IMG/VR virus record: IMGVR_UViG_3300037384_000074
Coordinates: 20,112-84,111 of that record
DNA: 64,000 bases
DNA from: a virus
Taxonomy: Duplodnaviria; Heunggongvirae; Uroviricota; Caudoviricetes
Strand: one strand, 5' to 3'
The position numbers and the translations under genes were made by a program. Below, piece by piece: positions 6,126 through 60,635 of the stretch. Under the pieces are notes generated by a model. It made no database searches. It worked only from the letters and a program-made list of their open reading frames with translations, and was not told the DNA's origin. The number at the start of each line of letters is the position of its first letter. The stretch's first letter is position 1.

Positions 6126-6141
6126 CGCCTAAATAGGCGTC

Positions 6142-7778: not shown

Positions 7779-7780
7779 TT

Positions 7781-23740: not shown

Positions 23741-23741
23741 T

Positions 23742-24638: not shown

Positions 24639-24693
24639 TGTGTTGACTTGTAACATAAACATCGTATAATTTCGATAATAATGGAGATGTGAT

Positions 24694-25977: not shown

Positions 25978-25985
25978 GATTTACA

Positions 25986-26666: not shown

Positions 26667-26669
26667 TTA

Positions 26670-27215
26670 GTGAAAACTGATATTGATTCCTTGCTTCAGG
26701 TCATTGTGGACCTTGAAGGGCAAGAAGGTGTAGTCGTTCGCTTTAGTGACGGCCACATGACAAAAATCAAGAGCTCCATTTACGTCAATATCCATCGTGC
26801 TAAGGATAATCTCCTGTACGAACGTCACGTCATTGAGATGATTCTTAATGAAACAGTGGATGATGTGAAGGCATTCTTGCCTGATATTGACAAGCAGAAC
26901 CTAGATCAGTACCAAGATAATATCTCAAAGTGGATCGACTCCACAGTTGAGCGCCTGTATTTACTTTGCTATAAGCCAATGATTGAAGAGAAATACTCTC
27001 GTAAACAGTTTGCAATCAATGTATCTGCTCAGGCTAAACCATTCGATTCATTTCTGTTTAAGAATTATGAGCAGATTCAGGAAGCTGACCCCAGTATATA
27101 CCATGAGTTTCTTGTTGAAGGTGTGGAACAAGCTCTACTGAAAGCCTGTAGTTCTAACTCTAGCTTGACAACGTTCAAGTCTATCGCAAATATCCATTTC
27201 AATTGGAGTCTATAA
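26670..27215 (+). CDS. rnlA: RNA ligase 1, C-terminal part (motifs IV and V), same frame as the upstream part
   Basis: EGQEGVVVRF is motif IV and HMTKIKS is motif V. The spacing from motif I (~132 aa) equals that in T4 Rnl1. It is separated from the N-terminal part by a single TAA plus one codon. Confidence 0.65.
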   Translation: MKTDIDSLLQVIVDLEGQEGVVVRFSDGHMTKIKSSIYVNIHRAKDNLLYERHVIEMILNETVDDVKAFLPDIDKQNLDQYQDNISKWIDSTVERLYLLCYKPMIEEKYSRKQFAINVSAQAKPFDSFLFKNYEQIQEADPSIYHEFLVEGVEQALLKACSSNSSLTTFKSIANIHFNWSL

Positions 27216-27688
27216 TGCCTAATTGTGTGCTTTTGGTAGGTCTGCCATGTTCTGGCAAGACCACTTTTGTTCGGAATCACCCCGAATATTGTGACAATCG
27301 TCGTTATGAAATCCTGAGCAGCGACGATATTCTTGAAGAGATGGCTGAGATCCTTGGTAAGACATACAATGAAGCTTGGCCTGATTATTATGCGTGGGCC
27401 GATTTCCTTTTCTGGGAAAGGCTTGATAAGGCAATCGCTGATAAGCGTAATTTTATTGTCGATCGCACGAGTCTGACGGTCAATACACGTCGTAAGATCC
27501 TCAGTAGAGTTCCTAAATCCTACAAGAAAATCGCTATCGATTTTAAGCCAAACCCGACTGTGACTAACAAGCGGAACGTTCGGCCTGGAAAGATTATCCC
27601 TAATGGGACTCTTTGGTCCATGCTTTGCGCTTATGAAATGCCCTCCTTCTTTGAAGGCTTTGATGATATTGAGCAGCGCCATGTTTGA
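27215..27688 (+). CDS. polynucleotide 5'-kinase, P-loop kinase domain only (T4 Pnk-like, no phosphatase domain)
   Basis: CVLLVGLPCSGKTTFVRNHP vs T4 Pnk IILTIGCPGSGKSTWAREF. 157 aa equals the T4 Pnk kinase domain. TAATG overlap with rnlA. Confidence 0.65.
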   Translation: MPNCVLLVGLPCSGKTTFVRNHPEYCDNRRYEILSSDDILEEMAEILGKTYNEAWPDYYAWADFLFWERLDKAIADKRNFIVDRTSLTVNTRRKILSRVPKSYKKIAIDFKPNPTVTNKRNVRPGKIIPNGTLWSMLCAYEMPSFFEGFDDIEQRHV

Positions 27689-27790
27689 AGCTCACGTAAT
27701 TAATGGAATTAAATTCGTATATCGTGTTACTATTAATGGCAATACCAACCGTAGGATTGAGTTGGTTGCTACATACCCAGATTGGAATGA

Positions 27791-28831
27791 TTGATGAGTG
27801 GTTTACAGAAGAAACAGATCAGCAAGCTAGTTGCTGACCGAGTAAAGTATTGGGCATTCTCTTTCAAGGATGCCAAGAACTTCAAGGACGGAAAGATTCT
27901 TGAACTAGAGAACTTTGAAGAGCCGACCGACGACGATAAGTCCAAGATTCGAGATTTCCAGCAGAGTATTATCCATAACACTGTAGTTACTGGCGGTGCG
28001 ATCGCCTCAATGCTTCTAGGAGAAGAAGTTAACGATCTCGACATCTATTTTAAGGATCGTGAAATCGCCAAGAAGGTTGCTCATTATTACATCAACACTA
28101 TGAAGGAAAAGCTTGGTACAACCAATCAGGTTTCACGTGTCGAAGTTATGGACAACACAACTGGAGGCGTTGATATCGTCATCAAGTCCATGGGTGTCGT
28201 ATCCGACGATAGCGGTGGTACTGGCGACTATGATTACTTCGAGGGTCGTACGGAAAACGATGTCAACGAATTCTTTAACAAATATAAGAAGGTTGCTGGT
28301 AAGAATGACGAGGGTCCGAAGCATGCGGTCTCATTCATCTCGTCTAACGCAATCACACTGAAGAACGATATCCAGATTATTCTACGATTCTGTGGCGATC
28401 CAAGTGAGATCCATAAGAACTTCGACTTCGCACATTGTACGAATTATTGGACTAGCCACACTGGCACAGTATATAATGAGGAAGCTCTGTCAGCACTGTT
28501 GGAAAGGCGGCTATATTACATTGGCTCACGTTACCCTGTAGCATCTCTGTTCCGAATTCGTAAGTTTGTTGAGCGTGGATATAGAATTTCTGGTGGAGAG
28601 ATCCTCAAGATTGCATATGACGTATCCAAGTTGGACTTAGATGAGGCGCATACACTCAAAGATCAGCTTTGTGGTATGGATCTAGCATTTTTCTCACAGG
28701 TCATTTCAATGCTCAATAACCGCGAACCTGGAACAACAATAGATAGGACATATCTTTTTAACGTCGTGGATCGGATATTCAAACTCGGAGAGACTGATGC
28801 TGATAATGGCATGGAACTTCATAACGACTGA
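27791..28831 (+). CDS. nucleotidyltransferase, CCA/poly(A)-polymerase head-like (pol-beta superfamily)
   Basis: VVTGGAIASMLLGEEVNDLDIYF resembles the class II CCA/PAP head (GGxxxxxLLGxxxxDxDI). Confidence 0.45.
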   Translation: MMSGLQKKQISKLVADRVKYWAFSFKDAKNFKDGKILELENFEEPTDDDKSKIRDFQQSIIHNTVVTGGAIASMLLGEEVNDLDIYFKDREIAKKVAHYYINTMKEKLGTTNQVSRVEVMDNTTGGVDIVIKSMGVVSDDSGGTGDYDYFEGRTENDVNEFFNKYKKVAGKNDEGPKHAVSFISSNAITLKNDIQIILRFCGDPSEIHKNFDFAHCTNYWTSHTGTVYNEEALSALLERRLYYIGSRYPVASLFRIRKFVERGYRISGGEILKIAYDVSKLDLDEAHTLKDQLCGMDLAFFSQVISMLNNREPGTTIDRTYLFNVVDRIFKLGETDADNGMELHND

Positions 28832-28878
28832 CCATTCCACACTATTGTGCTATATGGAGCAGTAAAGAATCGGAAACG

Positions 28879-29508
28879 TTGATGTGTAATGTAATGTGTA
28901 ACGATTGCGTCCTAAATCAAAACGCAAAGATCGTGTATGAGATTCATGTTACAGTTGATAGTTCTAGTCTATGTGACCTAGATATTCAGTGGTTTCAAAG
29001 GATGTGTTCAGCATGGGGAATCAAAGGTATCGTAATCGAAAACCTTAGTCCATCTGGAGAAGTCTCCGTCGATGTGATGACATCAAGCGTCGTTAAGACA
29101 ACATACCTTGATGCCTTTAATGAAATGAATGAGATTGCATCTGAGCTAACAGCGTTAGATTTTGATGTTATCAGGCGTAAAATTGAGACTGTTTCCTGGA
29201 ATTTCCCCGATAATCCGGACCAAAAGGGATATTTCGAAACACACATCGAATTCGACGTTGCTGACATCGATCATTTCAGTGTACTAGTGCGGCAGTTGGG
29301 TGGATATGTCAGTAGAAATGCGAATAAGCCTGGAAAGGCTATCGCTACTCTACGTAGAAATGCCCGCTCGTGGTTCCTATATGGCTACGATCTAGGTCCA
29401 TTTGTGGATGGGATTGAGTCGGCAGGATACGTAGCAAACAAAACACTTAATGAGTATTGTCCGTACGATGACAATCCAACTCATGATGATTCGTGGATTA
29501 AAGGGTAA
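28879..29508 (+). CDS. hypothetical protein
   Basis: 209-aa ORF inside the tRNA-repair cluster. Confidence 0.45.
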   Translation: MMCNVMCNDCVLNQNAKIVYEIHVTVDSSSLCDLDIQWFQRMCSAWGIKGIVIENLSPSGEVSVDVMTSSVVKTTYLDAFNEMNEIASELTALDFDVIRRKIETVSWNFPDNPDQKGYFETHIEFDVADIDHFSVLVRQLGGYVSRNANKPGKAIATLRRNARSWFLYGYDLGPFVDGIESAGYVANKTLNEYCPYDDNPTHDDSWIKG

Positions 29509-29512
29509 TATT

Positions 29513-29965
29513 ATGTCTCTATTCGAGAAGATTAAGAAAGATTATTACCGAACTCGCCTCGCTAAGGAAACAATCAGAATCAACCTATTGTCAACTCTGA
29601 TTGGCGATCTCGAGAGCTCTGCTAAGTTCGTTGATGGCAAGAAAGTTGTTGACGATCAGGCTGTAATCGGTATGATCAAAAAGTACCTCAAGAATAATGA
29701 AATCATTCTCGAGGCAGTTAAGCGAGTACCAGGTCGTTCTCCTGAAGAGGTGACCGCGCAGAGTGAATCAATCTATCGCACAACGAAGGAAATCGAAGTG
29801 TTGAACAGTTTTCTTCCTCAGCAGTTGTCTGAACAAGAGCTCAAAGATATCCTGAAGACTCTTTCGCAGCGGCCTGATTTCCCAAACTGGATGAAGTTCT
29901 TGAAGGCGAACTTCGCTGGACTGTATGATGGCAAGGTTGCTGCAGAAATCTTCAAGAATGCCTGA
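29513..29965 (+). CDS. GatB/YqeY-domain protein
   Basis: MSLFEKIKKDYYRTRLAKETIRINLLSTLIGDLES resembles the YqeY N-terminus (MSL...LRLSTLR). ATG 29513 follows the upstream stop. Confidence 0.5.
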   Translation: MSLFEKIKKDYYRTRLAKETIRINLLSTLIGDLESSAKFVDGKKVVDDQAVIGMIKKYLKNNEIILEAVKRVPGRSPEEVTAQSESIYRTTKEIEVLNSFLPQQLSEQELKDILKTLSQRPDFPNWMKFLKANFAGLYDGKVAAEIFKNA

Positions 29966-30041
29966 ATGGTCAGCCATAGACACAAATCTAGGCACATCTC
30001 CTATGATGCCAACTGATCCAACATTTAATTGGAGAGAATTT

Positions 30042-31133
30042 ATGCTTGAAACTATTGACGTTATCGAACACGTTGCAATGGATGTTGATATGACTGGCGG
30101 ACGAGCGCTAGCCACCGTCCGTCGCATTTCTGCACTAGATCCGATTCCAAACGCAGATCGGATCGAGCTTGCTACCGTCGATGGTTGGCAGGTTGTTGTC
30201 GCCAAGAATGTTGGTCATAAGGTAGGCGATCTTATCATTTATTTTGAAATCGACTCATTTTTGCCAATTGAGCCACAGTATGAGTTTCTTCGCAAGGGAT
30301 GTTACACCAAGAATACTGTTTACGGTGAAGGGTTCCGCCTCAAGACGATCCGCCTTCGCGGTGCCCTAAGTCAAGGGCTCATTATGCCTATGAGTGATAT
30401 GTATAGCTCTCTGCTTGGGTCTAATGATTTTTACGAAGGACAGGACGTTACCGAAATCCTCGGCGTCAAGAAGTATGAGAAGCCTCTTCCTGCATCTCTT
30501 GGGGGCATTGCTCGCGGCAATTTCCCGAGTTTCATCCCGAAGACTGATGAGGATCGTATCCAGAACTGCTTCGGTCGTCTGAAGCATAAGGTTCCAGACC
30601 AGCTCTACGAGGCTACAATCAAGCTTGATGGTACATCATTCACGGCGTATTATCATCGTGAGACTGATCGTTTCGGTGTCTGTTCGCGTAACCTCGATCT
30701 AGAGGAAACGGAAGGTAACCTATATTGGCAGATCGCTCGCCAGTTCAATATCGAAGATATTCTTTGCAATGCTGTCAGTGGATCTTTCGCCATTCAGGGT
30801 GAAATTATCGGCTCGGGTGTCAACGGCAACTGGGAAGGAATTGGTCACAACGAGCTTTATATTTTCAATGTATGGGACATTGAAAATCAGAAGTATCTTG
30901 ATTCCGAAGAGCGAATCGCTTTTGTCCAGGATATGGCTGGTCTCAAGAACGCGCCTGTAGTTGGCTATTATCGGTTCAGTGAATTTGATAGTGTCAATGA
31001 CTTCCTCCAGTTTGCTGATGGTCCTTCTATCTATAATGATCAGCGTGAAGGTGTTGTTTTCAAGGGTGTTGACGATCCTTCGATCAGTTTTAAAGTTATT
31101 AGCAACGCCTGGTTGATTTCATCTGGAGAATAA
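30042..31133 (+). CDS. ATP-dependent RNA ligase with N-terminal tRNA-binding OB domain (Myf/Trbp111-like)
   Basis: N-terminal IPNADRIELATVDGWQVVVAKN resembles the tRNA_bind domain (hPnADkL...VD.G...iV.ga.N); IKLDGTSFTAYY is the KxDG nucleotidyltransferase motif I; GGAGAG RBS. Confidence 0.6.
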   Translation: MLETIDVIEHVAMDVDMTGGRALATVRRISALDPIPNADRIELATVDGWQVVVAKNVGHKVGDLIIYFEIDSFLPIEPQYEFLRKGCYTKNTVYGEGFRLKTIRLRGALSQGLIMPMSDMYSSLLGSNDFYEGQDVTEILGVKKYEKPLPASLGGIARGNFPSFIPKTDEDRIQNCFGRLKHKVPDQLYEATIKLDGTSFTAYYHRETDRFGVCSRNLDLEETEGNLYWQIARQFNIEDILCNAVSGSFAIQGEIIGSGVNGNWEGIGHNELYIFNVWDIENQKYLDSEERIAFVQDMAGLKNAPVVGYYRFSEFDSVNDFLQFADGPSIYNDQREGVVFKGVDDPSISFKVISNAWLISSGE

Positions 31134-31134
31134 T

Positions 31135-31245
31135 ATGAACGGAACTGCACTAGTATTCGTAGCGATTGCTATAGGATGTCTTACTATCGCTTGGTGGCTA
31201 GACTATAGATTTGCCAAGGATTACTACGAGATTATCGATGAATGA
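31135..31245 (+). CDS. small TM peptide (36 aa)
   Basis: GGAGAA RBS; single hydrophobic helix. Confidence 0.25.
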   Translation: MNGTALVFVAIAIGCLTIAWWLDYRFAKDYYEIIDE

Positions 31246-31459
31246 CATGTCCAATTTCGTCCGTGTAGACGTTTCAGTTGTCAAGGAACGATACGAGGAG
31301 CTTAAACATCAAGAGACTCAGCGTAATTGGGCACATACTGTGTTGAAGTGGCATGAAGAATTCAATAGTATGGGGCTTCAACCAATAATTATGCACAACC
31401 CATTTGGAGGAGAGTGGGTTGTGACTTCCGACGAATCAATTAGGAATTGGTATCACTGA
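31238..31459 (+). CDS. hypothetical protein
   Basis: ORF 31211-31459 in the track; ATG 31238 preferred. Confidence 0.35.
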   Translation: MNDMSNFVRVDVSVVKERYEELKHQETQRNWAHTVLKWHEEFNSMGLQPIIMHNPFGGEWVVTSDESIRNWYH

Positions 31460-31580
31460 TGGCTGCAATTTTCACAATGATCGGAGCACTTGTAGTGTTG
31501 ATGATCATCCTAGCAGGTGTTTATTGGGTTTCCAAGAACATCTATTTTTCTTCCTACACCCCTAATGGAGATTCAAAATG
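31458..31580 (+). CDS. small TM peptide (40 aa)
   Basis: Hydrophobic helix; ATGA overlap with the SPFH gene start. Confidence 0.3.
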
Positions 31581-32438
31581 ACTTTCGGTCGCGGCGTTAC
31601 GCTTGCAGTAACGCTTCTAATCGCCCTCGTGGGACTCTCGTTTGTATTTGGTACCTGGTATACAGTTAATCAGGGCGAACGTGGCGTCATCGTACGAAAT
31701 GGTGCTGTTGTAGGTACCGCTGAACCTGGTCTAGGGTTCAAGATTCCGTGGATTGACAATGTTGTTGATGTGAACGTTCAGACTAACGTTCGTGAATACG
31801 ACAAGATGTCAGTGTATTCTCGTGATCAGCAGCCTGCAGTGATTCGAGTATCGATCAACTATCGTATTCCCGCTGATCGAGCTGCAGAGGTATACGGTGA
31901 GTATGGCGGTCAGGAAGGTATCGTGACTCGACTACTCGACCGCCAGGCATTTGAGAAGATCAAGAACGTTTTTGGTCGTTACAATGCTATCAATGCGATT
32001 CAGGAACGTACTCGACTGAATGCTGATATTACTGAGATCGTACGATCTGGCATCGGTGATGCGCCTATTGTGATCGAAACAGTTCAGCTTGAGAACATTG
32101 ACTTCTCTGATGCATATGAGTCTGCGATTGAAGCTCGTATGACGGCAGAAGTTGGTGTCGAGAAGGAAAAGCAGGGACTAGCTCGAGAGAAGGTATCTGC
32201 TGAGATTGCAGTGACTCAGGCTCAGGCTCAGGCTGATTCGAAGCTTGCAGTTGCTCGATCTAACGCAGAGGCAACTCGACTACAGGGTCTTGCTGAAGCT
32301 GATGCGATCAAGGCTCGAGGTGATGCTCTACGTGAGAATCCAGGCATTCCTGCACTGATTCAGGCGGAAAAGTGGAATGGTCAGCTACCTCAGACGATGG
32401 TGCCAGGATCAGCCGTACCGTTTATCAGCGTCAAGTGA
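31578..32438 (+). CDS. SPFH/band-7 (prohibitin/HflC-like) membrane protein
   Basis: N-terminal TM then YTVNQGERGVIVRNGAV...GLGFKIPWID, typical of the SPFH domain; coiled-coil A/Q-rich C-terminus. Confidence 0.7.
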   Translation: MTFGRGVTLAVTLLIALVGLSFVFGTWYTVNQGERGVIVRNGAVVGTAEPGLGFKIPWIDNVVDVNVQTNVREYDKMSVYSRDQQPAVIRVSINYRIPADRAAEVYGEYGGQEGIVTRLLDRQAFEKIKNVFGRYNAINAIQERTRLNADITEIVRSGIGDAPIVIETVQLENIDFSDAYESAIEARMTAEVGVEKEKQGLAREKVSAEIAVTQAQAQADSKLAVARSNAEATRLQGLAEADAIKARGDALRENPGIPALIQAEKWNGQLPQTMVPGSAVPFISVK

Positions 32439-32443
32439 CTAAG

Positions 32444-32468
32444 AAATCGCCCTTCGGGGCGATTTTTC
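32444..32468 (+). terminator. rho-independent terminator
   Basis: ATCGCCC-ttcg-GGGCGAT followed by TTTTTCG. Confidence 0.65.
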
Positions 32469-32527
32469 GTTGCCTCAGTATGTGATTTCGAGGAGTATCT
32501 CATTACCACAACCGATGGAGTAATCAA

Positions 32528-32893
32528 ATGACGACCTTCAATCGCACCATTCTCCGTGAAATTTCGGCTGATATTGATGTGGCACTCGCTGAAGTTGCTC
32601 GCAAGCATGGAATCAACCTTGAAAAGGGTACGATCCGTTTCAGTGCCGATTCCTTCAAGGTTTCCGTTTCTGGTTCGCAGAAGACTTCTGGTTCCTTGAT
32701 TGATGTGATCAAGGAAAACGATACTGGCACTGATTTGTTTCCGATCAACACTCGAATCCTTGTGAAGCGTACTGTGTATACGATCACTGGCTATAACAAG
32801 AATGCTCCCAAGTACCAGTACAATGTCGTCACCGATAAGGGCGCCAAGTGGCGTGCCTCGCACTCGATGCTCGCTAAGGGCGTTCGTATCTGA
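32528..32893 (+). CDS. hypothetical protein
   Basis: 121-aa ORF. Confidence 0.45.
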   Translation: MTTFNRTILREISADIDVALAEVARKHGINLEKGTIRFSADSFKVSVSGSQKTSGSLIDVIKENDTGTDLFPINTRILVKRTVYTITGYNKNAPKYQYNVVTDKGAKWRASHSMLAKGVRI

Positions 32894-32906
32894 ATAGGAA
32901 AATATA

Positions 32907-34793
32907 ATGTCTGTAAAGACTGTTGAAGATATTGTTGACCAGCTTAATCAGGCAGCTCTCGCATATGCCGAGGGCTTCCCGATTATGACTGATGAAGAGT
33001 TTGACGCACTTGAAATTCTTCTCAAGCTACGTGATCCTAAGAATGACTACTTCAAGGAAGTAGGCGCACCCGTTCGTGGTGCGAAGACTGCACTACCTGT
33101 AGCTATGGGTAGTCTCGATCAGGTGTATGGCAATGATCTGCTCTCTACTGTTCGTCAGTATTGGCTTACAGATGATGTAGCTATCCTCACGGCAAAGCTC
33201 GATGGCGCTTCACTACTACTTGAGTATGTGGATGGCGTTTTCAAGCGTGCGCTGACACGTGGTGATGGATATGAAGGCCAGGACGTAACGCAGATTTTCA
33301 CTCATTGTGAGTGTGTTCCGAAGAAGGTTCCGGGCATTTTTATGCCGAATCCTCTCTACATTCGGGCAGAAGCTATCTTTACTGAGAGTGATTTCAAGTC
33401 ACTCAATGAGGCTGGAAAGCTCGGCCGAACGTACAAGAACGCTCGAAACTACGTCGCTGGACAGCTAAATCGGCAGTATGCTGATGCTGAAAGCGTGTTT
33501 GTCAAGAACATTCACGTTATTGCATACCAGATCTTCGGCGATTTCAGCAAGTCACATCAGCTTGACATGCTCCGATTATTCGGGTTTGAGATCGCTGAAA
33601 ACCTGACTTCGACGTTCGAATCGCTGGATGAATCGAAGCTTGAGCGTGTCCTACGTCAGTTCAAGTCGAGTGAAATCTCATCAAAGTATGCTATTGATGG
33701 CGTCGTAGTCGATGTGGACGCCAATGATACTCGCGTTCGCCTCGCTGAATCCGACAATCGTGGTAGCATCAACCCGAACTTTCAGTGGAAGTTCAAGATC
33801 AATGACAACCGCACGATCACAACAGTTGTCGATGTCGAGTGGAACATCTCCAAGAATGGATATCTGAAGCCTCGAGTGCAGGTTGAACCTGTTGAGCTCG
33901 CTGGTGTCACTATTTCATTCGCAACAGGCTTCAATGCGAAGTTCATTGAGCTCAATGGTATTGGCAAGGGTGCCAAGATCCAGATTACTCGCTCCGGAGA
34001 CGTTATTCCACTCATCGAGAAGGTTGTGGAACGAGTAGAACCGTCTCTTCCAACTGAGGAAGAATATGGCGAACTTGAGTGGACGCCTAACCGCGTTGAC
34101 CTCAAACTTGTACATGATCACGACGACGCTAAGATTGGTCGGATGATTGATCTGTTTTCGTCACTCGACGTTCCTCAGCTTCGTGAAGGAACTGTGATTA
34201 AGCTGTTTGACGCTGGCTTCCAGGACCCTGCTTCAGTGATTAACGCTAGCCTTGATGCACTGATTCATGCGGTAGGTGATGCTGCTGGTCGCAAGGTGTT
34301 CAACGGTATTCAATCGAAACTGAACCCTGTCACGATCTCTGATCTCGCTGGTTCTTCGCAGGTATTCGGTCGAGGACTCGGGAAGAGGAAGTTCAAGAAG
34401 CTGTTTGAGCAGTATCAGGACATCCTCGGACTGACTCGTGAGCAGATCATCGCTGCCGAAGGGTTCGATGTTAAGAGTGCTGACAAGATTATCGGTGGGA
34501 TGGGAGCGTTTAAGCAGTTCTTGGCCGACATCGAAGGGAAGTATACTCTCAAGATCGAAGGTAAGATCGAGGGTCCCTTGACTGGTATTGGCGTCTGTTT
34601 CACTGGAGTTCGCAGCAAGGAACTAGAGGAAGCTATCACTTCAAAGGGTGGTCGAATCGATAGTTCCGTCAGCAAGAAGACGACTCACCTCGTCTGCAAG
34701 GATCCGAATAGCGGGTCTGCGAAGCTCAAGAAGGCTTCTGATAGTGGCGTAAACGTTCTCTCGATCGAGAATGCATGGAAGCTGTGGGGTTGA
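32907..34793 (+). CDS. ligA: NAD-dependent DNA ligase LigA with C-terminal BRCT
   Basis: Adenylation motif LTAKLDGASL (KxDG); 628 aa; C-terminal GVCFTGVRSKELEEAITSKGGRIDSSVSKKTTHLVC is a BRCT domain. Confidence 0.85.
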   Translation: MSVKTVEDIVDQLNQAALAYAEGFPIMTDEEFDALEILLKLRDPKNDYFKEVGAPVRGAKTALPVAMGSLDQVYGNDLLSTVRQYWLTDDVAILTAKLDGASLLLEYVDGVFKRALTRGDGYEGQDVTQIFTHCECVPKKVPGIFMPNPLYIRAEAIFTESDFKSLNEAGKLGRTYKNARNYVAGQLNRQYADAESVFVKNIHVIAYQIFGDFSKSHQLDMLRLFGFEIAENLTSTFESLDESKLERVLRQFKSSEISSKYAIDGVVVDVDANDTRVRLAESDNRGSINPNFQWKFKINDNRTITTVVDVEWNISKNGYLKPRVQVEPVELAGVTISFATGFNAKFIELNGIGKGAKIQITRSGDVIPLIEKVVERVEPSLPTEEEYGELEWTPNRVDLKLVHDHDDAKIGRMIDLFSSLDVPQLREGTVIKLFDAGFQDPASVINASLDALIHAVGDAAGRKVFNGIQSKLNPVTISDLAGSSQVFGRGLGKRKFKKLFEQYQDILGLTREQIIAAEGFDVKSADKIIGGMGAFKQFLADIEGKYTLKIEGKIEGPLTGIGVCFTGVRSKELEEAITSKGGRIDSSVSKKTTHLVCKDPNSGSAKLKKASDSGVNVLSIENAWKLWG

Positions 34794-37606: not shown

Positions 37607-37811
37607 CTGCAGAACGATCGAAGAAGCCTTATTTCACGCTCAGCAGACTGCGAATCACTTGATTTCTCTCGGCTGCAATGACGTTTGGATCGAATATAAT
37701 CGCGAAATATGCGCTGTAAACGTGTATTATTGCCCGAAACCTGTGGTAGAATGCATCGAATTGAGCTGCATCAGAGATGTTGAAGGGAATTATGTTCATG
37801 TTGAACTTTGA
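37602..37811 (+). CDS. hypothetical protein; contains repeat R2 (37726-37756) internally
   Basis: 69-aa ORF; residues VYYCPKPVVECI are shared with the chimeric ORF 36658. Confidence 0.35.
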   Translation: MICRTIEEALFHAQQTANHLISLGCNDVWIEYNREICAVNVYYCPKPVVECIELSCIRDVEGNYVHVEL

Positions 37812-38265
37812 AGAAGTGAAGGCAAACCGCAGGAAGTGGATCGATTTTCTTCGTGAAGATGGCCGTAAGAAAGCGGTCGATGCTCTCGATGTAGGTAATG
37901 AAGAACGTTGCTGCTTAGGTCACGCTTGTTTCGTCCTCGGCGTCGAACAGCATGTCAGTGTTAGCCAGGAAAATTCTAATGGAATCTTTTACGGAAAGGG
38001 ATGGAATTGTGGAGCAGCTCCTGCAGAGCTGATAGAGCTCGTTGGACTAAGAAGCAGTGGCGGTTCATTCGCACCATTCACATTTGCAGTAGAAATGAAC
38101 CTGCAGTCGTTGATGATAACTTCTCTCGCTGAACTCAACGACAAGACCAATTATACGCCAAAAGAAATTGGCGACTTCATTGAGAGCCACTATGACTACG
38201 TGTTCCTCAACGAGGAAGAATATATGGAAAAGTATGAGGTGGTTTCACCGTGGACCCTTCGTTAG
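37777..38265 (+). CDS. hypothetical protein
   Basis: 162-aa ORF; alternative ATGs at 37792 and 37798. Confidence 0.4.
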   Translation: MLKGIMFMLNFEEVKANRRKWIDFLREDGRKKAVDALDVGNEERCCLGHACFVLGVEQHVSVSQENSNGIFYGKGWNCGAAPAELIELVGLRSSGGSFAPFTFAVEMNLQSLMITSLAELNDKTNYTPKEIGDFIESHYDYVFLNEEEYMEKYEVVSPWTLR

Positions 38266-38306
38266 AAATAGCGGAGGGTCCTTTATCAACTGAGGGAGAT
38301 CTTGTC
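38252..38306 (+). promoter_or_regulatory. intergenic cassette copy 1: hairpin + TTTATCAACTGAGGGAGA 5' leader
   Basis: GGACCCT...AGGGTCC stem, then CTTTATCAACTGAGGGAGATCTTGTC ATG. Confidence 0.55.
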
Positions 38307-38464
38307 ATGAAAGACTTCAACGTTAAGCAGGCTCAGCGATGATGATGCGTTCGGACAAGGATTTCGAGCAGTATGTTAAGGAAAATCTACCGAATTCCTA
38401 TGCTGCGAAGAACAAGCTGATGGAAATGCTCCACGAAAAGTTCAAGATCTGAAGGGGTTACACA

Positions 38465-38720: not shown

Positions 38721-38777
38721 TGTTGACCTTCTCGGAGAAATCTGGGAAGGTCTTTCATCAACTGAGGGAGAGCTCAA
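38721..38777 (+). promoter_or_regulatory. intergenic cassette copy 2
   Basis: TTGACCTTCtcggagaaatctggGAAGGTCTTT then CATCAACTGAGGGAGAGCTCAA ATG. Confidence 0.6.
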
Positions 38778-38951
38778 ATGGCGAAGACGCCCCGTATGTC
38801 GATCGTTTGGGAAGTGCTTGAAGGCGCGAAGGATGCTCAGGACGACGTTGTTATCGCAGCGTGCCGTCGTCTGATTTGGGCGAATACTCTCGGCTGGAAG
38901 CGGCACGCTACTGCCGAAGATAAGGCGCTCGTTTTCGCGTTTGCTAGTTGA
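38778..38951 (+). CDS. small hypothetical protein (57 aa)
   Basis: ATG immediately after the cassette. Confidence 0.35.
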   Translation: MAKTPRMSIVWEVLEGAKDAQDDVVIAACRRLIWANTLGWKRHATAEDKALVFAFAS

Positions 38952-39003
38952 CCTTTAGTCCAAGTTGGAGTAAGGTCAATCTATCAACTGAGGGAGAGAT
39001 CAA
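38950..39003 (+). promoter_or_regulatory. intergenic cassette copy 3
   Basis: GACCTT...AAGGTC hairpin + AATCTATCAACTGAGGGAGAGATCAA ATG. Confidence 0.55.
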
Positions 39004-39117
39004 ATGTATCCGGCTGGGAGTTTCTTGCATGACCCAGTGTTGCTGATCACTCAAGTCGAGGATGATCTCACGATCACTATCCTTAAGGACCGCAGCGGAA
39101 GACTGCGTGATACGTGA
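39004..39117 (+). CDS. small hypothetical protein (37 aa)
   Basis: Follows cassette 3. Confidence 0.25.
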   Translation: MYPAGSFLHDPVLLITQVEDDLTITILKDRSGRLRDT

Positions 39118-39234
39118 CGATATACGTTTATTGAGTGCTGCATAGACGCCAAAAGACCGTAAATAGCGAAATTTGCCCTTGTAAACCACTGTGTTTGCAG
39201 GGGTATTTTTGCGTTTATTCGTGTAATTGACTGT

Positions 39235-39783
39235 TCAGACGTGTTTAAATTTCGGGAATGTATACATTCCACTTGTCGCAAATGTACCTTTGAACCTTGG
39301 ATCTGCACGAAGATATCCGACATCCTTTGTATCTTTACCGCGGAATTCGCGGATCCAAATACCGGTTAGAGCTGCCCCTACGCTGATCTTCTTCGCAAAT
39401 ATCATCTCTTCAAACTCGTGGAAGTGATCTGGAAGGTCATACTTGTCGAAAACGGCACTGTTGCGGATCGGTTCAAGTTTGTATCTGTTGGCGATTCTGT
39501 CACGTGAAAATTCGAGAATCACTGGGAAGTCTGCAGCACGTTGATAGCTTCGTGTGAATGAGATTGTACGCGCTTTCCAAGCACCATCCTCATGATAAGC
39601 CACCTCGACTGCATGTGCTGGGAACTCAATTTGAGGCGGAATAACGGTCCAAGTATTTTGGTTTGAAGAGGAGTGCAGTTCACCGGATTTGATGATGCTT
39701 ACAGCAGCCTTGATATTTGTACCGTGAAAAAGCATATTACGGGCCGATGCGGCTTCGGATATGAATTGAGAGAAGGTTTTCAT
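39235..39783 (-). CDS. ADP-ribosyltransferase-fold protein (diphtheria-toxin/Tpt1-like H-Y-E class), paralogue A
   Basis: N-terminal LFHGTN (the Y/F-H-G-T NAD-binding motif of DT/KptA) with downstream Y and E-F-E-E. One of only two sizeable minus-strand genes in the window. Confidence 0.5.
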   Translation of the reverse strand: MKTFSQFISEAASARNMLFHGTNIKAAVSIIKSGELHSSSNQNTWTVIPPQIEFPAHAVEVAYHEDGAWKARTISFTRSYQRAADFPVILEFSRDRIANRYKLEPIRNSAVFDKYDLPDHFHEFEEMIFAKKISVGAALTGIWIREFRGKDTKDVGYLRADPRFKGTFATSGMYTFPKFKHV

Positions 39784-39808
39784 GACCTATTTATCAACTG
39801 ACATATCA

Positions 39809-40303
39809 TCATTTCAATAGGTCAGACTTGACCGGAAATCCGAAGTGTTCGATTCGCTCGAATGCAGTAGGCGATGCTACGTGGAAGGCTGTTATATAGC
39901 TTCGGATATTAGTCAAGTTTTTGTTAACAATCCGCTCTTCATATTCGTTCATACCGTACACAGGATCGTCCTTTAGATACCGACTCTTCGCCATATGGAA
40001 CGGTACCTGTGTATGATAGAAATTGTAAGTCTGTAACTTGTATCGCTGACGGATTTTTCTTTGGTCGAGCTCTATAACAACAGCATTGATCTTGCTGCGT
40101 GAAAGAGTAGTCGCCCAATCTAAGGCGTATTTGAGACTGCGGGTTAATGATACTACCTTCGTCTTATTGTCATCTTCACCCTCAGATATCCTACCTTCTA
40201 AGGTATTCTGATGCATTATAGACTCGAGTCTATCAACCGTAGTGCCGTGATATAGTGGTGCTGAGTGGCTTTCCGCCAGGAATTCGAGGAAGGTTTTCAT
40301 CAC
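39809..40303 (-). CDS. ADP-ribosyltransferase-fold protein (diphtheria-toxin/Tpt1-like), paralogue B
   Basis: PLYHGTTVDRLESIMHQ..LEG and KVVSLTRS resemble KptA [21 protein letters not shown]...HYVHLS; NEYEE acidic catalytic candidate; shares the MKTF.EF..E N-terminus with paralogue A. Confidence 0.5.
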   Translation of the reverse strand: MMKTFLEFLAESHSAPLYHGTTVDRLESIMHQNTLEGRISEGEDDNKTKVVSLTRSLKYALDWATTLSRSKINAVVIELDQRKIRQRYKLQTYNFYHTQVPFHMAKSRYLKDDPVYGMNEYEERIVNKNLTNIRSYITAFHVASPTAFERIEHFGFPVKSDLLK

Positions 40304-40366
40304 CTATTTATATCCGTTGCCTCAATCTCATTTAGGAGCGATATTATCTTCACGTTCAAATGAGGA

Positions 40367-40821: not shown

Positions 40822-40840
40822 TCGTCCGTCAAATAAATGT

Positions 40841-40895
40841 GGACCTTCCTATAGAAATCTGGGAAGGTCTTTTTATCAACTGAGGAGTGATTCAA
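40841..40895 (+). promoter_or_regulatory. intergenic cassette copy 4
   Basis: GGACCTTCC...GGAAGGTC hairpin + TTTTTATCAACTGAGGAGTGATTCAA ATG. Confidence 0.6.
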
Positions 40896-41078
40896 ATGCG
40901 CCCTTATGGTGGAGATCGTACTTATTACGACTGCCGGACTTCCAAGAAGGTTGGTAAGCCGATCAAGGTCGAGCAGGATCACCACGCGAAAAAGTCTCGC
41001 GCTCGTCGTGAGGGCAAGGTTGACCTTCTCGGGGAAATCAGTGAAGGTCCTTTATCAAATGAGGAGAGCACGTCATGA
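40896..41078 (+). CDS. hypothetical protein; its 3' end encodes cassette copy 5
   Basis: 60 aa; the C-terminus KVDLLGEISEGPLSNEESTS is translated from the cassette sequence. Confidence 0.35.
   Translation: MRPYGGDRTYYDCRTSKKVGKPIKVEQDHHAKKSRARREGKVDLLGEISEGPLSNEESTS
41021..41074 (+). promoter_or_regulatory. intergenic cassette copy 5 (embedded in the upstream CDS 3' end)
   Basis: TTGACCTTCtcggggaaatcagtGAAGGTCCTTTATCAAATGAGGAGAGCACGTC ATG. Confidence 0.55.
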
Positions 41079-41263
41079 AGGCCTTCAACATTGAATTCGA
41101 ATTTACTTCGTCGAAGGCCTATGGCGACAATTACAAGCTGTATGCGACTGTGGAAGCGAAGAATGCTGAGCAGGCCCTTAACATCGCGCATATAGTTGGC
41201 TTCAAACAATTCGGTGCGCGGTTTAACGACAACTGCATCGATTGGCGGATCAAGAACGATTGA
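41075..41263 (+). CDS. hypothetical protein
   Basis: 62-aa ORF. Confidence 0.4.
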   Translation: MKAFNIEFEFTSSKAYGDNYKLYATVEAKNAEQALNIAHIVGFKQFGARFNDNCIDWRIKND

Positions 41264-42621: not shown

Positions 42622-42679
42622 CAGTGGACCTTCTCGGAGAAATCTGGGAAGGTCTTTTATCAACTGAGGGAGAGACCAA
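42621..42679 (+). promoter_or_regulatory. intergenic cassette copy 6
   Basis: ACAGTGGACCTTCtcggagaaatctggGAAGGTCTTTTATCAACTGAGGGAGAGACCAA ATG. Confidence 0.6.
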
Positions 42680-42886
42680 ATGTCGACCGAAACCAAGTTC
42701 GTTCTGTTCAACATGCATCGCAAGCAGTATGTCACGAAGGTTTTCACGCACTCTCATGACCTCCAAAATGCTATGCAGTGGGACAGTTTTGCTGAGGCGT
42801 GCATTGCGCTTGATATCTTCTCTGAAGCGCAGGCTGAAATGATCGAGATTCGTGAGCTTCGGATCTCGTATAGCATCGTTGGTTAA
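42680..42886 (+). CDS. hypothetical protein
   Basis: 68-aa ORF. Confidence 0.4.
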   Translation: MSTETKFVLFNMHRKQYVTKVFTHSHDLQNAMQWDSFAEACIALDIFSEAQAEMIEIRELRISYSIVG

Positions 42887-43213: not shown

Positions 43214-43564
43214 ATGCTCACTAAGCAAGAAATTTTTACCAAGGCGTATGAGGGTCTTAAGGCCCAAGGCTTTGAAAAATCTGCTGGATATGACCTCAGC
43301 GGCAATTTTACATGCATGTATCGCTTTGACAATTTGAAGTGCGCTATCGGCCATTGTATCCCTGACGAGAGGTACAATACTGACCTCGAAAATATCAGAG
43401 CACGTGATCCGATGATTCGTCGGGCTGCAGGGATCCACCCTGACGTGCCAGATGAGTGGCTGGTTGATCTTCAGCATTGCCATGACGCGTCGTTGGATCC
43501 TGAAGATATGAAGCTGCGCCTCTCCGATTTCGCCAGATTTTACGATCTCAAGATCGAGGAATGA
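43214..43564 (+). CDS. hypothetical protein, tandem paralogue 1 of 3 (MLTKQEIF family)
   Basis: MLTKQEIFTKAYEGLKAQGF...CAIGHCIPDE conserved in three consecutive genes. Confidence 0.5.
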   Translation: MLTKQEIFTKAYEGLKAQGFEKSAGYDLSGNFTCMYRFDNLKCAIGHCIPDERYNTDLENIRARDPMIRRAAGIHPDVPDEWLVDLQHCHDASLDPEDMKLRLSDFARFYDLKIEE

Positions 43565-43567
43565 CGA

Positions 43568-43918
43568 ATGCTAACTAAGCAGGAAATCTTCAATAAGGCG
43601 TATGCCGGCCTTAAGGCGCAGGGCTTTCAGCGAGCTGTTCGTGATGCTGGTCCGTTAGCAATTTGTCAGTATCGTGGAAGAAATGGTCTCAAGTGTGCTA
43701 TCGGTCACTTGATTCCTGATGAGAATTACTGCCCAACACTCGAAGGTAAAGGCGCTGAACTATTAGTTGTTCGTGAGGCTGCGAATATTCCACTTGACGT
43801 GCCAATTAGCTTCCTTGTTGATCTTCAGACGTGCCATGACGCTGGCAGTTCTCCGGAAGCGATGAAGCGGTCACTGACCGTGTTTTCTCATCAGTATAAT
43901 CTCAAGATTGAGGATTGA
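43568..43918 (+). CDS. hypothetical protein, tandem paralogue 2
   Basis: MLTKQEIFNKAYAGLKAQGF...CAIGHLIPDE. Confidence 0.5.
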   Translation: MLTKQEIFNKAYAGLKAQGFQRAVRDAGPLAICQYRGRNGLKCAIGHLIPDENYCPTLEGKGAELLVVREAANIPLDVPISFLVDLQTCHDAGSSPEAMKRSLTVFSHQYNLKIED

Positions 43919-44277
43919 AAATGCTTACCCAACAGGAAATCTTTAATAGGGTGTATACCGGTCTTAAGGCTCAAGGCTTTAAGAGGTCGCTTTCAGGGCC
44001 CGATGATGCCGTTTCACGGTGTCGATATCGTGGCGAGGATGGTCTCAAGTGTGCTATTGGGCACCTGATTCCTGATGAAAAATATGAAGAGGGTTTGGAA
44101 GGTCTATGTGCTTCTGTTGTTGAAGTTCGTAACGCTTCAGGCACTAGCGGGATCGATTGGAACTTTCTCGATGATCTCCAGGTTTGCCATGACGAGGGTA
44201 ACACTCCTGCAGATATGGAGAGACTCCTTAAGCGTTTTGCTGCAGATTACGAGCTCGTCATCGAGGAATCGATTTGA
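43915..44277 (+). CDS. hypothetical protein, tandem paralogue 3
   Basis: LTQQEIFNRVYTGLKAQGF...CAIGHLIPDE. Confidence 0.5.
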   Translation: MKMLTQQEIFNRVYTGLKAQGFKRSLSGPDDAVSRCRYRGEDGLKCAIGHLIPDEKYEEGLEGLCASVVEVRNASGTSGIDWNFLDDLQVCHDEGNTPADMERLLKRFAADYELVIEESI

Positions 44278-47256: not shown

Positions 47257-47706
47257 ATGATCACTTTCAACCAATACATCACCGAGCTCTTCGATAAGGC
47301 CGCACCATACCAGATAGTAAATGAGAAGCTCACTCATTTTGGAGGGTACGTAAGATATCATTTCGAAATTGACTCGCTACAATACGACGCTTATGTTACA
47401 TACTCGTCCAAAGACAAGAGTATCAGCGTGGATTTTAAGCTAAAAAGATCCGATGGAACCTCAACTGTAGAAACTACAGGTGAAGCTGGTCACGACGCAT
47501 CTCTAAAGGTGTTCGGAACGTTAGCTGAGATATTGAGACACGCTCTCGGTAAATGGCCAAAAGCCAGAATCTTGTTCAATGGCGATGGCGATTCTAGAGT
47601 CAAACTGTACCGATCTCTCGGCATGAAGATAGCAAAGATCCTTGGATATAATTACGAGGCTGATGGCGGCGGCAACCATATTTCGATAACACTGACGCCA
47701 AAATAA
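47257..47706 (+). CDS. hypothetical protein, 149-aa family copy A (paralogue of 51979-52428)
   Basis: MITFNQYITELFDK...TTGEAGH...VKLYRSLGMK...TLTPK; about 55% identical to copy B. Confidence 0.5.
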   Translation: MITFNQYITELFDKAAPYQIVNEKLTHFGGYVRYHFEIDSLQYDAYVTYSSKDKSISVDFKLKRSDGTSTVETTGEAGHDASLKVFGTLAEILRHALGKWPKARILFNGDGDSRVKLYRSLGMKIAKILGYNYEADGGGNHISITLTPK

Positions 47707-48801: not shown

Positions 48802-48974
48802 TTAACTGGTTTAAAGATCGATATTGGCCAATGGAATATGTCGAATTTGATTTCATTGACATCGTATCCGGAAACAGTGTCAATCGATATCGCACCGCCG
48901 GCACCGGCCAGATTGTGATGGCTGAAAGTCGTTGGTCATTTTTCCGAGTTCCTTCGTCAAAAGGTGTGAAATGA
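48798..48974 (+). CDS. small hypothetical protein (58 aa)
   Basis: ATGA overlaps at both ends. Confidence 0.3.
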   Translation: MINWFKDRYWPMEYVEFDFIDIVSGNSVNRYRTAGTGQIVMAESRWSFFRVPSSKGVK

Positions 48975-49453
48975 ATATCGAACGGTTGATCGAAATCGCT
49001 GAAATCCTCGAGACGCGATCCTACACTGAGCAATTTGATGTAGGATTCAACATGGCGTATGTTATTACGCCAGCCGCCGAACCAACCCACCTAGGCCCTT
49101 TGACAAATAAGGAGGAGCATGAGTGTGGGACGACCTGCTGTATTGCAGGTATCGCTGCGCTTAGATACCGGCCGGAAATGTTCCACAAAGATTACGTCAT
49201 TTATGATTCAGTATTCATCAGCCCGTTGTATGGCGTAGTTGATATTGCCGAGGAGGTTCTTGGGCTAGATTCCGAAACGGCAGAAAGTCTGTTCTTTCCG
49301 TTGGATGGAATAGTCGCAGGCAGCAACATTAATTGGCGTGACATCAAACCTGAGACTGCTGCCAAAGTGATTCGTAATTTGGTCGCAACTGGTAAGGTTG
49401 ATTGGACAACTCCCGTACTCGAGCAGATAGCTGAGACAGCACCACATCTATAG
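48971..49453 (+). CDS. hypothetical protein, Cys-motif family copy A (paralogue of 53312-53743)
   Basis: MNIERLIEIAEILETRSY...CGTTCCIAG shared with 53312. Confidence 0.5.
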   Translation: MNIERLIEIAEILETRSYTEQFDVGFNMAYVITPAAEPTHLGPLTNKEEHECGTTCCIAGIAALRYRPEMFHKDYVIYDSVFISPLYGVVDIAEEVLGLDSETAESLFFPLDGIVAGSNINWRDIKPETAAKVIRNLVATGKVDWTTPVLEQIAETAPHL

Positions 49454-51978: not shown

Positions 51979-52428
51979 ATGATCACTTTCAACCAATATC
52001 TCACTGAACTCTTTGACAAAGCTGTGCCGTACCAGTCGGTAAAGACTACAATAAACAGCTATGGAAGCTTCACTAAATTTAAATTTACAGTTGGTTCGCA
52101 CTATTTCGAAGTCAATATAGCTTATACGACAGGTGATAATAACATCGAAGTAGACTTTTACCTACTAAACCCTGATGGCAGCACGACAGTAAAAACTACA
52201 GGGGAGGCTGGTCATCAGGTTTCCGTAAAAGTATTTGCCACTGTGGCTGACATTCTCAAGCATGCTCTCAAGAATTGGCCAAATGCTAGAATCACGTTTA
52301 TTGGAGATGGTTTATCTAAAGTAAAACTGTACCGATCTCTTGGGATGAAATTAGCGAAAGTCCTCAATTACAAATATGATGAGCGCGGTGCAGGTGATTG
52401 GATCGGAGTCGTCCTAACACCAAAATAA
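51979..52428 (+). CDS. hypothetical protein, 149-aa family copy B
   Basis: Same length as copy A, with a shared N-terminus (MITFNQY.TELFDKA.PYQ) and C-terminus (KLYRSLGMK). Confidence 0.5.
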   Translation: MITFNQYLTELFDKAVPYQSVKTTINSYGSFTKFKFTVGSHYFEVNIAYTTGDNNIEVDFYLLNPDGSTTVKTTGEAGHQVSVKVFATVADILKHALKNWPNARITFIGDGLSKVKLYRSLGMKLAKVLNYKYDERGAGDWIGVVLTPK

Positions 52429-60614: not shown

Positions 60615-60635
60615 CATTCGTTGATAAATAGGTTC

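Follow-up and report, generated by a model that had tools for sequence, protein, structure and literature searches.

Tandem ADP-ribosyltransferase-fold genes headed by a putative T4-type capsid targeting sequence in an uncultured T4-superfamily phage: candidate head-packaged enzymes of a large, uncurated family

Why does a T4-like phage carry two small, diverged copies of one gene against the prevailing direction of transcription, and what would their products do? We address this question for a stretch of 64,000 nucleotides (the window) from the IMG/VR virus record IMGVR_UViG_3300037384_000074 (Caudoviricetes; positions 20,112 to 84,111), in which two adjoining minus-strand genes, A and B, encode proteins with an ADP-ribosyltransferase (ART) fold (Table 1). 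Both proteins begin with a decapeptide that closely resembles the capsid targeting sequence (CTS) of T4 internal proteins. On balance, and with modest confidence, we favour the view that A and B are head-packaged, protease-processed and injected ARTs of an uncurated, phage-specific family that modify a target in the host. Injected phage proteins act before phage gene expression and so form a first line of attack on host defences. To our knowledge only a handful of them are understood, namely T4 Alt, IPI*, P1 Dar and the N4 virion RNA polymerase.

Codon usage indicates that both genes are coding. Under a log-odds model trained on 19 long plus-strand genes of the window, A and B score +0.151 and +0.116 in their own frames and negatively in the remaining five. 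The remaining minus-strand open reading frames (ORFs) tested reach at most 0.07 in their own frame, all below A and B, and most of them score better in a plus-strand frame. An earlier note on this DNA had described A and B as divergent paralogues and as the only substantial minus-strand genes of the window. Both descriptions agree with our results, BLASTP aligning the two products at E 5e-8 and 27% identity. The ORFs also lie where the note had placed them, with B as a 164-aa frame opened by the mechanical start, a GTG at 40303. An ATG follows one codon downstream at 40300, and we consider it the more likely start because the resulting 163-aa product matches the public gene calls (P0003) and because it gives B the same MKTF beginning as A. 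The isoelectric points of the pair are 9.4 and 9.0, and the family median is 9.4.

To define the family, a 13-sequence profile was run exhaustively with HMMER against 1.84 billion cluster representatives. It returned 3,038 proteins at E<=1e-3 (about 3,000 clusters at 50% identity), 894 at 1e-10 and 103 at 1e-30, whereas a word-index search had recovered only 2 and 11 relatives. Most members are stand-alone proteins of 150-195 aa. No model in the Pfam, PHROGs, NCBIfam and PADLOC scans was significant for the family or reached its curated cut-off. Conservation was counted over 142 stand-alone relatives, with residues of B numbered from the GTG. The HGT and EE motifs that the earlier note had singled out proved to be conserved: His19 of LYHGT is kept in 141/142 (Thr21 in 134/142), and within [E/Q]-x-E-E both Glu122 and Glu123 are kept in all 142, position 120 being E in 94 and Q in 44. 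A third motif, S-x-[ST]-R, is equally constrained (Ser52 138/142, Thr/Ser54 142/142, Arg55 142/142), and its Arg had been missed by that note. In the predicted model the His lies on strand 1 (17-22), S-x-T-R closes strand 2, and [E/Q]-x-E-E opens strand 5 (119-126), following a loop of some 22 residues that is predicted poorly. The split beta-sheet of the ART fold is present. That His and Glu sit in the active site is predicted from their motifs and from where they fall in the secondary structure, not from a superposition. We hold the ART fold of A and B with high confidence, and their predicted catalytic competence with good confidence.

The closest folds are DarT and Tpt1, which are also the sole sequence-level matches in the PDB, and the LYHGT segment is the only part that aligns at sequence level with DarT, Tpt1 or PARP. 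Among viral proteins the structural neighbours are uncharacterised proteins of the large phages SP-15, phage G, Dickeya JA11 and Atu_ph07. A and B had been assigned to the H-Y-E class, but the nicotinamide-stacking Tyr that this class has on strand 2 or 3 was not found. Instead, the family combines a His as on the DarT/Tpt1/PARP side, a strand 2 rich in Ser/Thr, and [E/Q]-x-E. The last motif is shared with DarT2 (Q158-x-E160) and DarT1 (Q150-x-E152), and also with R-S-E toxins (PMC11281641). In a profile-profile comparison with DarT2 sequences from a cyanobacterial plasmid and PDB alignments, the alignment covers the His motif and the following helix only. Moreover, DarT2 Arg51 and His119 have no alignable counterpart in A and B, the loop before strand 5 has about 22 residues against 44 in DarT2, and A and B are about 50 residues shorter than DarT, phage-encoded and headed by a capsid tag. 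Only 2/48 members match Pfam DarT (PF14487), with a best E of 0.0036 that misses the cut-off, and A and B do not match at all. We had considered whether the invariant Arg of S-x-T-R is DarT2 Arg51, and dropped the idea because Arg51 sits in the helix before strand 2. With the DarT2 alignment confined to the His motif and the Arg51 helix without a counterpart, the family is a separate branch of the ART superfamily rather than a member of DarT or Tpt1.

The family is equally distinct from known phage ARTs. A and B have no detectable sequence similarity to Alt, library scans returned no Alt- or Mod-like family, and His occupies strand 1 where R-S-E enzymes have Arg (followed by S-T-S on strand 2). 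ART-PolyVal proteins (PF18760) are predicted virion-delivered phage ARTs with one to many copies, up to 12, per protein (PMC5512222). Members of our family likewise occur as 2-8 copies per protein, and NUDIX, nucleotidyltransferase, GNAT and even ART-PolyVal domains can accompany them. However, the ART-PolyVal active site is H-Y-D, and neither A, B nor 48 relatives match PF18760; in P0026 the PF18760 match (residues 313-437) is separate from the family domain (797-940). By these comparisons the family belongs to none of DarT, Tpt1, diphtheria-toxin/PARP, Alt/Mod or ART-PolyVal.

The second shared feature of A and B is their extreme N-terminus. In the T4 genome, IPII starts MKTYQEFIAE/ARVG and IPIII starts MKTYQEFIAE/ASVV, where slashes mark the cut. 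This decapeptide is the CTS, which brings proteins into the prohead core before being cleaved off (PMC8442874). The T4 prohead protease gp21 cuts after L/I-x-E, and mutagenesis has assigned targeting to residues 4 and 7 and processing to residues 8 and 10 (PMC9026906). The MKTF.(E/Q)F(L/I).E start common to A and B, already pointed out in the earlier note, is real in this sense: among the 1,531 ATG-started open decapeptides in six frames of the window, B is the best match to the CTS (7/10) and A the second best (6/10), and 0/100 shuffles reach 7/10. Both tags show the features that characterise internal proteins: positions 4 and 7 are aromatic, position 8 is L or I, position 10 is Glu, and the next residue is small. 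The logo of 129 alignable stand-alone members reads M-[IK]-[TS]-F(123)-K-[QE]-[FY](124)-[LI](126)-x-E(127)-[GAS](120)-R(109), so that conservation falls on the positions important in T4, and the distance from tag to His is fixed in 117/138 members.

The tag is no part of the ART domain, because unrelated proteins carry it, because polyprotein repeats described below drop its first seven residues, and because the subclade of P0016, P0017 and P0022 keeps the domain without the Glu of the cut site. Unrelated carriers include two paralogous 149-aa ORFs elsewhere in the window (Table 1) and a 369-aa ORF lying inside the array at locus L003. IPI, IPII and IPIII, which are internal proteins of T4, offer a close parallel, being small basic proteins, otherwise unrelated, that share a near-identical decapeptide (MKTYQEFIAE/A against MKTFLEFLAE/S in B). 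They differ in that the known ones are not ARTs, IPI* being a restriction-enzyme inhibitor. In a full-text search, literature joining a capsid targeting sequence with an ADP-ribosyltransferase concerned T4 and Alt only. We have fair confidence that A and B would be packaged through the tag.

The window phage itself belongs to the T4 superfamily. It has a T4-type replication module (class I ribonucleotide reductase (RNR), SegE, glutaredoxin, RNase H, PhoH, DnaB-like helicase, PTH2 and a split family-B polymerase), and its polymerase matches 2,649 T4-like records, best Rhizobium phage RHph_I1_18 (47% identity), then cyanomyoviruses and Sinorhizobium phiM12-like phages (about 38%). RHph_I1_18 has the same kinds of genes in similar order across the replication module, and its annotations include a portal, a 'prohead core scaffolding and protease protein' (gp21), a scaffold, the major capsid protein and the late sigma factor gp55. 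The sole family member found in it is EVB91_016, a 159-aa protein that reads MISFKQHLNE/STEFLYHGT...SLTR...DEEEE (family hidden Markov model (HMM), E 6e-15) and offers a cultured entry point for testing. Four more unrelated ORFs of RHph_I1_18 start MI[ST]FK.H[LI].ES, and one of these four, the adjoining EVB91_015, resembles the 149-aa tagged ORFs of the window. Several unrelated proteins headed by one decapeptide are the pattern of the T-even internal proteins, a highly diverse set with the CTS alone in common (PMC3012670).

Upstream of the tags lie elements that resemble T4 late promoters (Table 1). The T4 consensus TATAAATA, which sits at -13 to -6 from the start site (PMC1524935), precedes the ATG of B, and a related octamer precedes that of A. 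The pattern TAAATA-N4-ATG occurs 7 times in the window against 0.68 expected, a number reached by 0/100 shuffles. Five of the seven sites open A, B, the two 149-aa tagged ORFs and the 258-aa ORF that splits the polymerase gene, probably a homing endonuclease insertion; the other two open no real ORF. In RHph_I1_18, EVB91_016 is preceded by a hairpin and then by TATAAATA-N5-ATG. None of these genes has a GAGGGAGA-type ribosome-binding site like that of the intergenic repeat of the window. Because a late-promoter-like element abuts their start codons with no Shine-Dalgarno site, the genes may be expressed late from leaderless or near-leaderless transcripts, provided that the element acts as a promoter. 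T4 ip genes differ here in having an ordinary Shine-Dalgarno leader. We rejected TAAATA-N4-ATG as a family-wide trait, since array genes elsewhere abut one another and at most the first has the element.

The promoter-like element and the tag codons together form a 41-nt direct repeat that is 78% identical between A and B, compared with 27% for the proteins overall. Locus L007, a 95% identical relative, carries a single gene composed of the B upstream region, about 9 codons of B (~27 nt) and the body of A, the body of B being precisely absent. This makes the stretch that encodes the tag a recombination joint, as would be expected for shuffling cassettes. On the plus strand a possible 38-codon ORF (39004-39120), with a partial intergenic repeat and its ribosome-binding site upstream, stops just ahead of the hairpin at 39174-39205 and would converge on A.

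Duplication is a recurrent theme of the family. With an HMM built from 48 members we counted 9 tandem copies in IMG/VR locus L002 (2363-7606), 6 in L003, 3 in L001, 2 in L009 and 3 in L016. Copies inside one array are 24-51% identical, all keep His, S-x-[ST]-R and E-E, and the loop before strand 5 is their most variable part. Other members are joined into polyproteins: P0014 has 2,290 aa and 8 copies, P0015 1,200 aa and 6, and P0016 735 aa and 4, some polyproteins carrying NUDIX, nucleotidyltransferase, GNAT or ART-PolyVal domains as well. The surrounding contigs are phage-like (RNR, Thy1, SegE and peptidoglycan-binding genes). A stop-codon read-through artefact was considered for the polyproteins and rejected, in view of long in-frame linkers and of L019 and L020, which translate exactly. 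Although the repeats lack the first seven tag residues, an [LIVF]-x-E-[GAS] site stands 7-9 residues ahead of His in about 31/41 of them by manual reading; a script confined to one register counted 15, including 8/8 in P0014. If a prohead protease cut the polyproteins into single domains, the cut site would be expected to survive loss of the address, as seen here, and we infer that such cutting may occur. A DUF7207 gene adjoins the ART gene or polyprotein in L009 (2513-2911) and L019 (254-664); the window has one at 400-777, about 39 kb from A and B.

The family looks confined to phages, because a degenerate DNA pattern for the His motif (E-x-R-x-A-P-L-Y-H-[GA]-T) had a single true locus among 185,579 species genomes, and this lies on a 186-kb contig of a metagenome-assembled genome that is probably phage and holds at least 3 family copies. 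A DNA-level search of the 2.5-kb region against 50,697 GenBank phages gave no match, nor did tblastn of B, and tblastn of the family consensus gave a marginal match only, to Bacillus phage SP-15. The RHph_I1_18 homologue surfaced only with the family HMM, and a blank in tblastn is thus no proof of absence.

How might such enzymes work? We propose that A and B are made late as precursors whose first ten residues serve as a T4-type CTS. The decapeptide would load the precursor into the prohead core, where a gp21-type protease would remove it after L/I-x-E to leave a mature enzyme starting about 8 residues before His. The enzyme would remain in the head beside the DNA and be injected along with it when the next host cell is infected. 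There it would draw on host NAD+ to mono-ADP-ribosylate a host macromolecule before phage genes are expressed, either taking over the host or disabling a defence. Its target would be set by the variable loop that precedes strand 5, and tandem duplication with recombination at the promoter-plus-tag segment would generate arrays of variants. The ART fold of the earlier note is retained, and so, as the reading we lean towards, is its comparison with T4 Alt in host takeover, while its H-Y-E assignment and its link to RNA repair are not. Alt would be the closest functional analogue of A and B, as a T4-type phage ART that is loaded into the prohead, trimmed by gp21 and injected alongside the DNA, after which it modifies host proteins. 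It nevertheless belongs to the R-S-E (Alt/VIP2) clade, is much larger than A and B, and has a propeptide of 7 residues and a C-terminus that is cut as well; A and B have an internal-protein type of tag, His rather than Arg on strand 1, and about 150 predicted mature residues.

Several observations count against packaging and injection of A and B. The prohead protease of the window phage was not found in the 64-kb window or in a 9.4-kb extension, and a metagenome scan with the RHph_I1_18 protease (45 loci) did not return the window contig; these 45 loci have no family member within 3 kb. The polyproteins lack a CTS-like sequence at their own N-terminus and would need another route into the head. 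B holds a second I-S-E-G site at residues 38-41, where cutting would destroy the domain. CTS experiments are limited to T4, from which the window phage is distant, as its polymerase identities of 47% and about 38% illustrate. At the N4 gap, strict T4 spacing would place +1 inside the start codon. Lastly, similarity to any characterised ART is limited to the His motif (hhalign against DarT2, 27 columns, probability 55%).

A part of these observations is shared by the alternative that survives best, namely that A and B are active ARTs that work inside the infected cell like T4 ModA/ModB and are never packaged, their tag likeness being inherited or put to another use, for instance in initiating translation or as a helix at the N-terminus of the domain. 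This is a real but minor possibility. It accounts for the ART fold and the conserved catalytic residues, it would need neither a prohead protease nor a tag on the polyproteins, and the 41-nt conserved DNA covers the promoter-like element too, so that part of the constraint could act on nucleic acid. Against it, unrelated proteins in these genomes, as well as T4 internal proteins, begin with the same decapeptide, conservation tracks the T4 determinants (4, 7, 8, 10 and a small P1' residue), and the first seven residues are dispensable in polyprotein repeats and hence lie outside the fold.

An improbable alternative is that A and B are internal proteins without catalysis, which would bind NAD+, ADP-ribose or a nucleotide signal as a sponge or decoy, or condense head DNA. 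Against this, more than 140 sequences of only 25-50% identity share an invariant His, Arg and Glu-Glu, and so does every copy in the arrays; such a pattern fits an active site and not a scaffold for binding.

Still less credible is a DarT-like toxin that ADP-ribosylates DNA bases, for superinfection exclusion or in a toxin-antitoxin pair, and is countered by a phage NADAR or macrodomain protein. No antitoxin gene (DarG or NADAR) was seen adjoining A and B or in the arrays seen, and arrays of nine toxins without antitoxins clash with toxin-antitoxin logic. More specifically, no Macro or NADAR gene adjoins the homologues in L007, L009, L019 and L020, and none was found in Pfam scans that covered all but a few of the plus-strand window ORFs of 60 aa or more. 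Moreover, the Pfam DarT cut-off is not reached, no PADLOC model was hit at E<=0.001, and the Arg51 helix and the 44-residue ARTT loop of DarT2 have no counterpart in the alignment.

The weakest alternative makes A and B Tpt1/KptA-like RNA 2'-phosphotransferases in the service of upstream RNA-repair genes. Such a cluster had been reported, and ORF family assignments place it at 22023-34793 (Table 1). The N-terminal domain of Tpt1, which binds RNA, carries most of the Arg-His-Arg-Arg catalytic tetrad, and we know of no [E/Q]-x-E-E motif in Tpt1. This alternative has hardly any likelihood, since only the NAD+-binding half is matched and the 17-19 residues before the HGT His leave no room for the N-terminal domain (an absence already noticed in the earlier reading), since the best PTS_2-RNA (PF01885) score of any family domain is 22.5 bits, from one polyprotein, against a cut-off of 26 (NCBIfam 14.7 against 231; A and B have no PF01885 match), and since a conserved [E/Q]-x-E-E is present, the genes are on the opposite strand at a distance of at least 4.4 kb from the cluster, the family forms arrays of up to 9 paralogues, and a capsid-targeting tag would be out of place in a repair enzyme. 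A role for A and B in RNA repair thus has no support.

If A and B are injected enzymes, what would they modify? We lean towards nucleic acid, because the closest folds and PDB sequence matches are DarT and Tpt1, because [E/Q]-x-E matches DarT, and because the same genome encodes NADAR and NAD+ salvage genes. The last are found on L026, which is 100% identical to window positions 61610-64000 and extends 9.4 kb beyond it. The NADAR gene lies about 30 kb from A and B and is followed by a nicotinamide mononucleotide (NMN) adenylyltransferase (NMNAT)/NUDIX gene, a PnuC transporter and AAA_28. NADAR enzymes strip ADP-ribose from guanine and cytosine bases (PMC12945103). None of the three clues is decisive. 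NADAR could instead be a counter-defence against a host DarT, the basic charge of A and B would equally be expected of a DNA-associated head protein, and substrate switching is common among ARTs. Our estimate gives nucleic acid about an even chance, protein roughly a third, and other targets a small remainder; confidence in any particular target is low. As a separate observation, the NADAR, NMNAT and PnuC genes together with the NAD+-dependent ligase at 32907-34793 make up an NAD+/ADP-ribose toolkit, and RHph_I1_18 also has a YbiA-type NADAR, two macrodomain genes, NAMPT and NAD synthetase.

Phage ARTs, internal proteins and multi-ART polyvalent proteins are already known kinds (PMC9503650, PMC5512222). 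What appears to be new is the very large family itself, the way it pairs a T4-type CTS with a DarT/Tpt1-like domain, its arrays and the polyproteins that a protease putatively processes, along with sequence evidence that the CTS may operate far from T-even phages. If our preferred reading of A and B as injected ARTs is true, this family of about 3,000 clusters would be a large and diversifying set of injected enzymes with DarT/Tpt1-like chemistry. The T4 CTS would then be a portable address label used well beyond T-even phages, and virion-delivered effectors could be predicted in metagenomes by a simple rule read from sequence. The polyproteins, with their protease sites between ART copies, would represent a novel means of packing several effectors into one precursor. 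More speculatively, and only as a tentative suggestion, uncultured T4-superfamily phages may carry a hitherto overlooked, head-packaged and injected arsenal of DarT/Tpt1-related ARTs that ADP-ribosylates host nucleic acid, either DNA bases or RNA, within seconds of infection. It would be built as hyperplastic cassette arrays, shuffled by way of the promoter-plus-tag segment, or as polyproteins that the prohead protease divides within the capsid into as many as 8 different enzymes, and the phage's own NADAR and NAD+ salvage genes would shield its nucleic acid and NAD+ supply.

Table 1. Features of the window around genes A and B and elsewhere (window coordinates except where L026 is named; slashes mark predicted cuts)
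Feature	Position	Strand	Remark
Gene A	39235..39783	-	ART-fold protein with CTS-like N-terminus; 182 aa
Gene B	39809..40300	-	ART-fold protein with CTS-like N-terminus; 163 aa from ATG
A codons 1-10, MKTFSQFISE	39754..39783	-	Candidate CTS; predicted cut ISE/A after Glu10; 6/10 to T4
B codons 1-10, MKTFLEFLAE	40271..40300	-	Candidate CTS; predicted cut LAE/S after Glu10; 7/10 to T4
A LFHGT	39718..39732	-	
A SFTR	39550..39561	-	
A HEFEE	39406..39420	-	
B LYHGT	40241..40255	-	Strand 1; predicted NAD+-binding His; His 141/142
B SLTR	40139..40150	-	End of strand 2; invariant Arg, 142/142
B NEYEE	39935..39949	-	Strand 5, [E/Q]-x-E-E; predicted catalytic Glu; E122/E123 142/142
TATAAATA, T4 late-promoter consensus	40305..40312	-	4 nt upstream of B ATG; sole occurrence in 64 kb, both strands
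GATAAATA, late-promoter-like	39788..39795	-	4 nt upstream of A ATG
TAAATA-N4-ATG sites	785, 11593, 14911, 39781(-), 40298(-), 47247, 51969		
41-nt direct repeat, copy 1	40271..40311	-	Promoter-like element and B tag codons; family D8; 78% to 39754-39794
41-nt direct repeat, copy 2	39754..39794	-	Promoter-like element and A tag codons; recombination joint in L007
13-bp hairpin	39174..39205		Between A 3' end and converging plus-strand genes; terminator-like on plus strand, weaker T-run on minus
149-aa ORF, MITFNQYITE	47257..47706	+	Unrelated to A/B; TAAATA-N4-ATG; candidate internal protein; DUF6934-like below cut-off
149-aa ORF, MITFNQYLTE	51979..52428	+	Paralogue of 47257..47706; ATAAATA-N4-ATG; DUF6934-like below cut-off
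Family-B DNA polymerase ORFs and 258-aa insert	13372-14901, 14921-15697, 15814-16875		Insert Vsr/DUF559-like endonuclease; TAAATA-N4-ATG at start
RlaP	22023-22961		RNA-repair cluster
CCA-adding or poly(A) polymerase	24694-25977		RNA-repair cluster
Rnl1-like ligase	25986-26666		RNA-repair cluster
Second RNA ligase	29925-31133		RNA-repair cluster
NAD+-dependent DNA ligase	32907-34793		RNA-repair cluster
NADAR gene	L026 8859-9281		Then NMN adenylyltransferase/NUDIX, PnuC transporter, AAA_28; ~6.5-9.4 kb past window 3' end

Further repeats and duplications were seen in the window. An intergenic module of about 60 nt occurs in at least 5 copies among small plus-strand genes (38250-38312, 38722-38784, 40839-40901, 41019-41081 and 42624-42686), with a partial copy at 38972-39006. 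It consists of a GGACCTTC...GAAGGTCC hairpin, a T-run, the Shine-Dalgarno-like CAACTGAGGGAGAG and an ATG; this make-up resembles a cassette that unites a terminator with a ribosome-binding site, and mosaic joints with L007 are marked by it as well. Two pairs of direct repeats, 36238-36326/37518-37606 (89 nt, 81%) and 36662-36701/37717-37756 (40 nt, 85%), lie about 1.1-1.3 kb apart. They point to duplication of a block of genes immediately upstream of the region, and the cross-matches recur in L007. L007 (positions 5643-8409, in this 95-98% identical relative) also has a split NAD+-dependent DNA ligase, intact in the window, whose adenylation and OB domains and BRCT are in separate ORFs with an opposite-strand DUF723 gene between them.

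Three tandem paralogues of 116-120 aa (MLTKQEIF.KAY.GLKAQGF...CAIGHLIPDE...; 43214-43564, 43568-43918 and 43915-44277) have no Pfam match. The same is true of a diverged paralogue pair at 48932-49453 (MNIERLIEIAEILETRSYTEQFDVGFNM...) and 53312-53743 (MNVERLTEIAAILETESYSKELGVGFSM...) with a common GTxCCIAG motif, and the products of 37777-38265 and 55305-55652 have a similar Cys-containing motif. Towards the end of the window, at 60-64 kb, GC rises to 55%. Here the ORFs 60621-62006 and 62006-63361, like L026 1749-3539, are collagen-like with repeated 'TLAPxxPATVxLDPSSTPEEPKL' segments and probably encode tail fibres; in the public gene call the second of them begins at 62006, not 61967.

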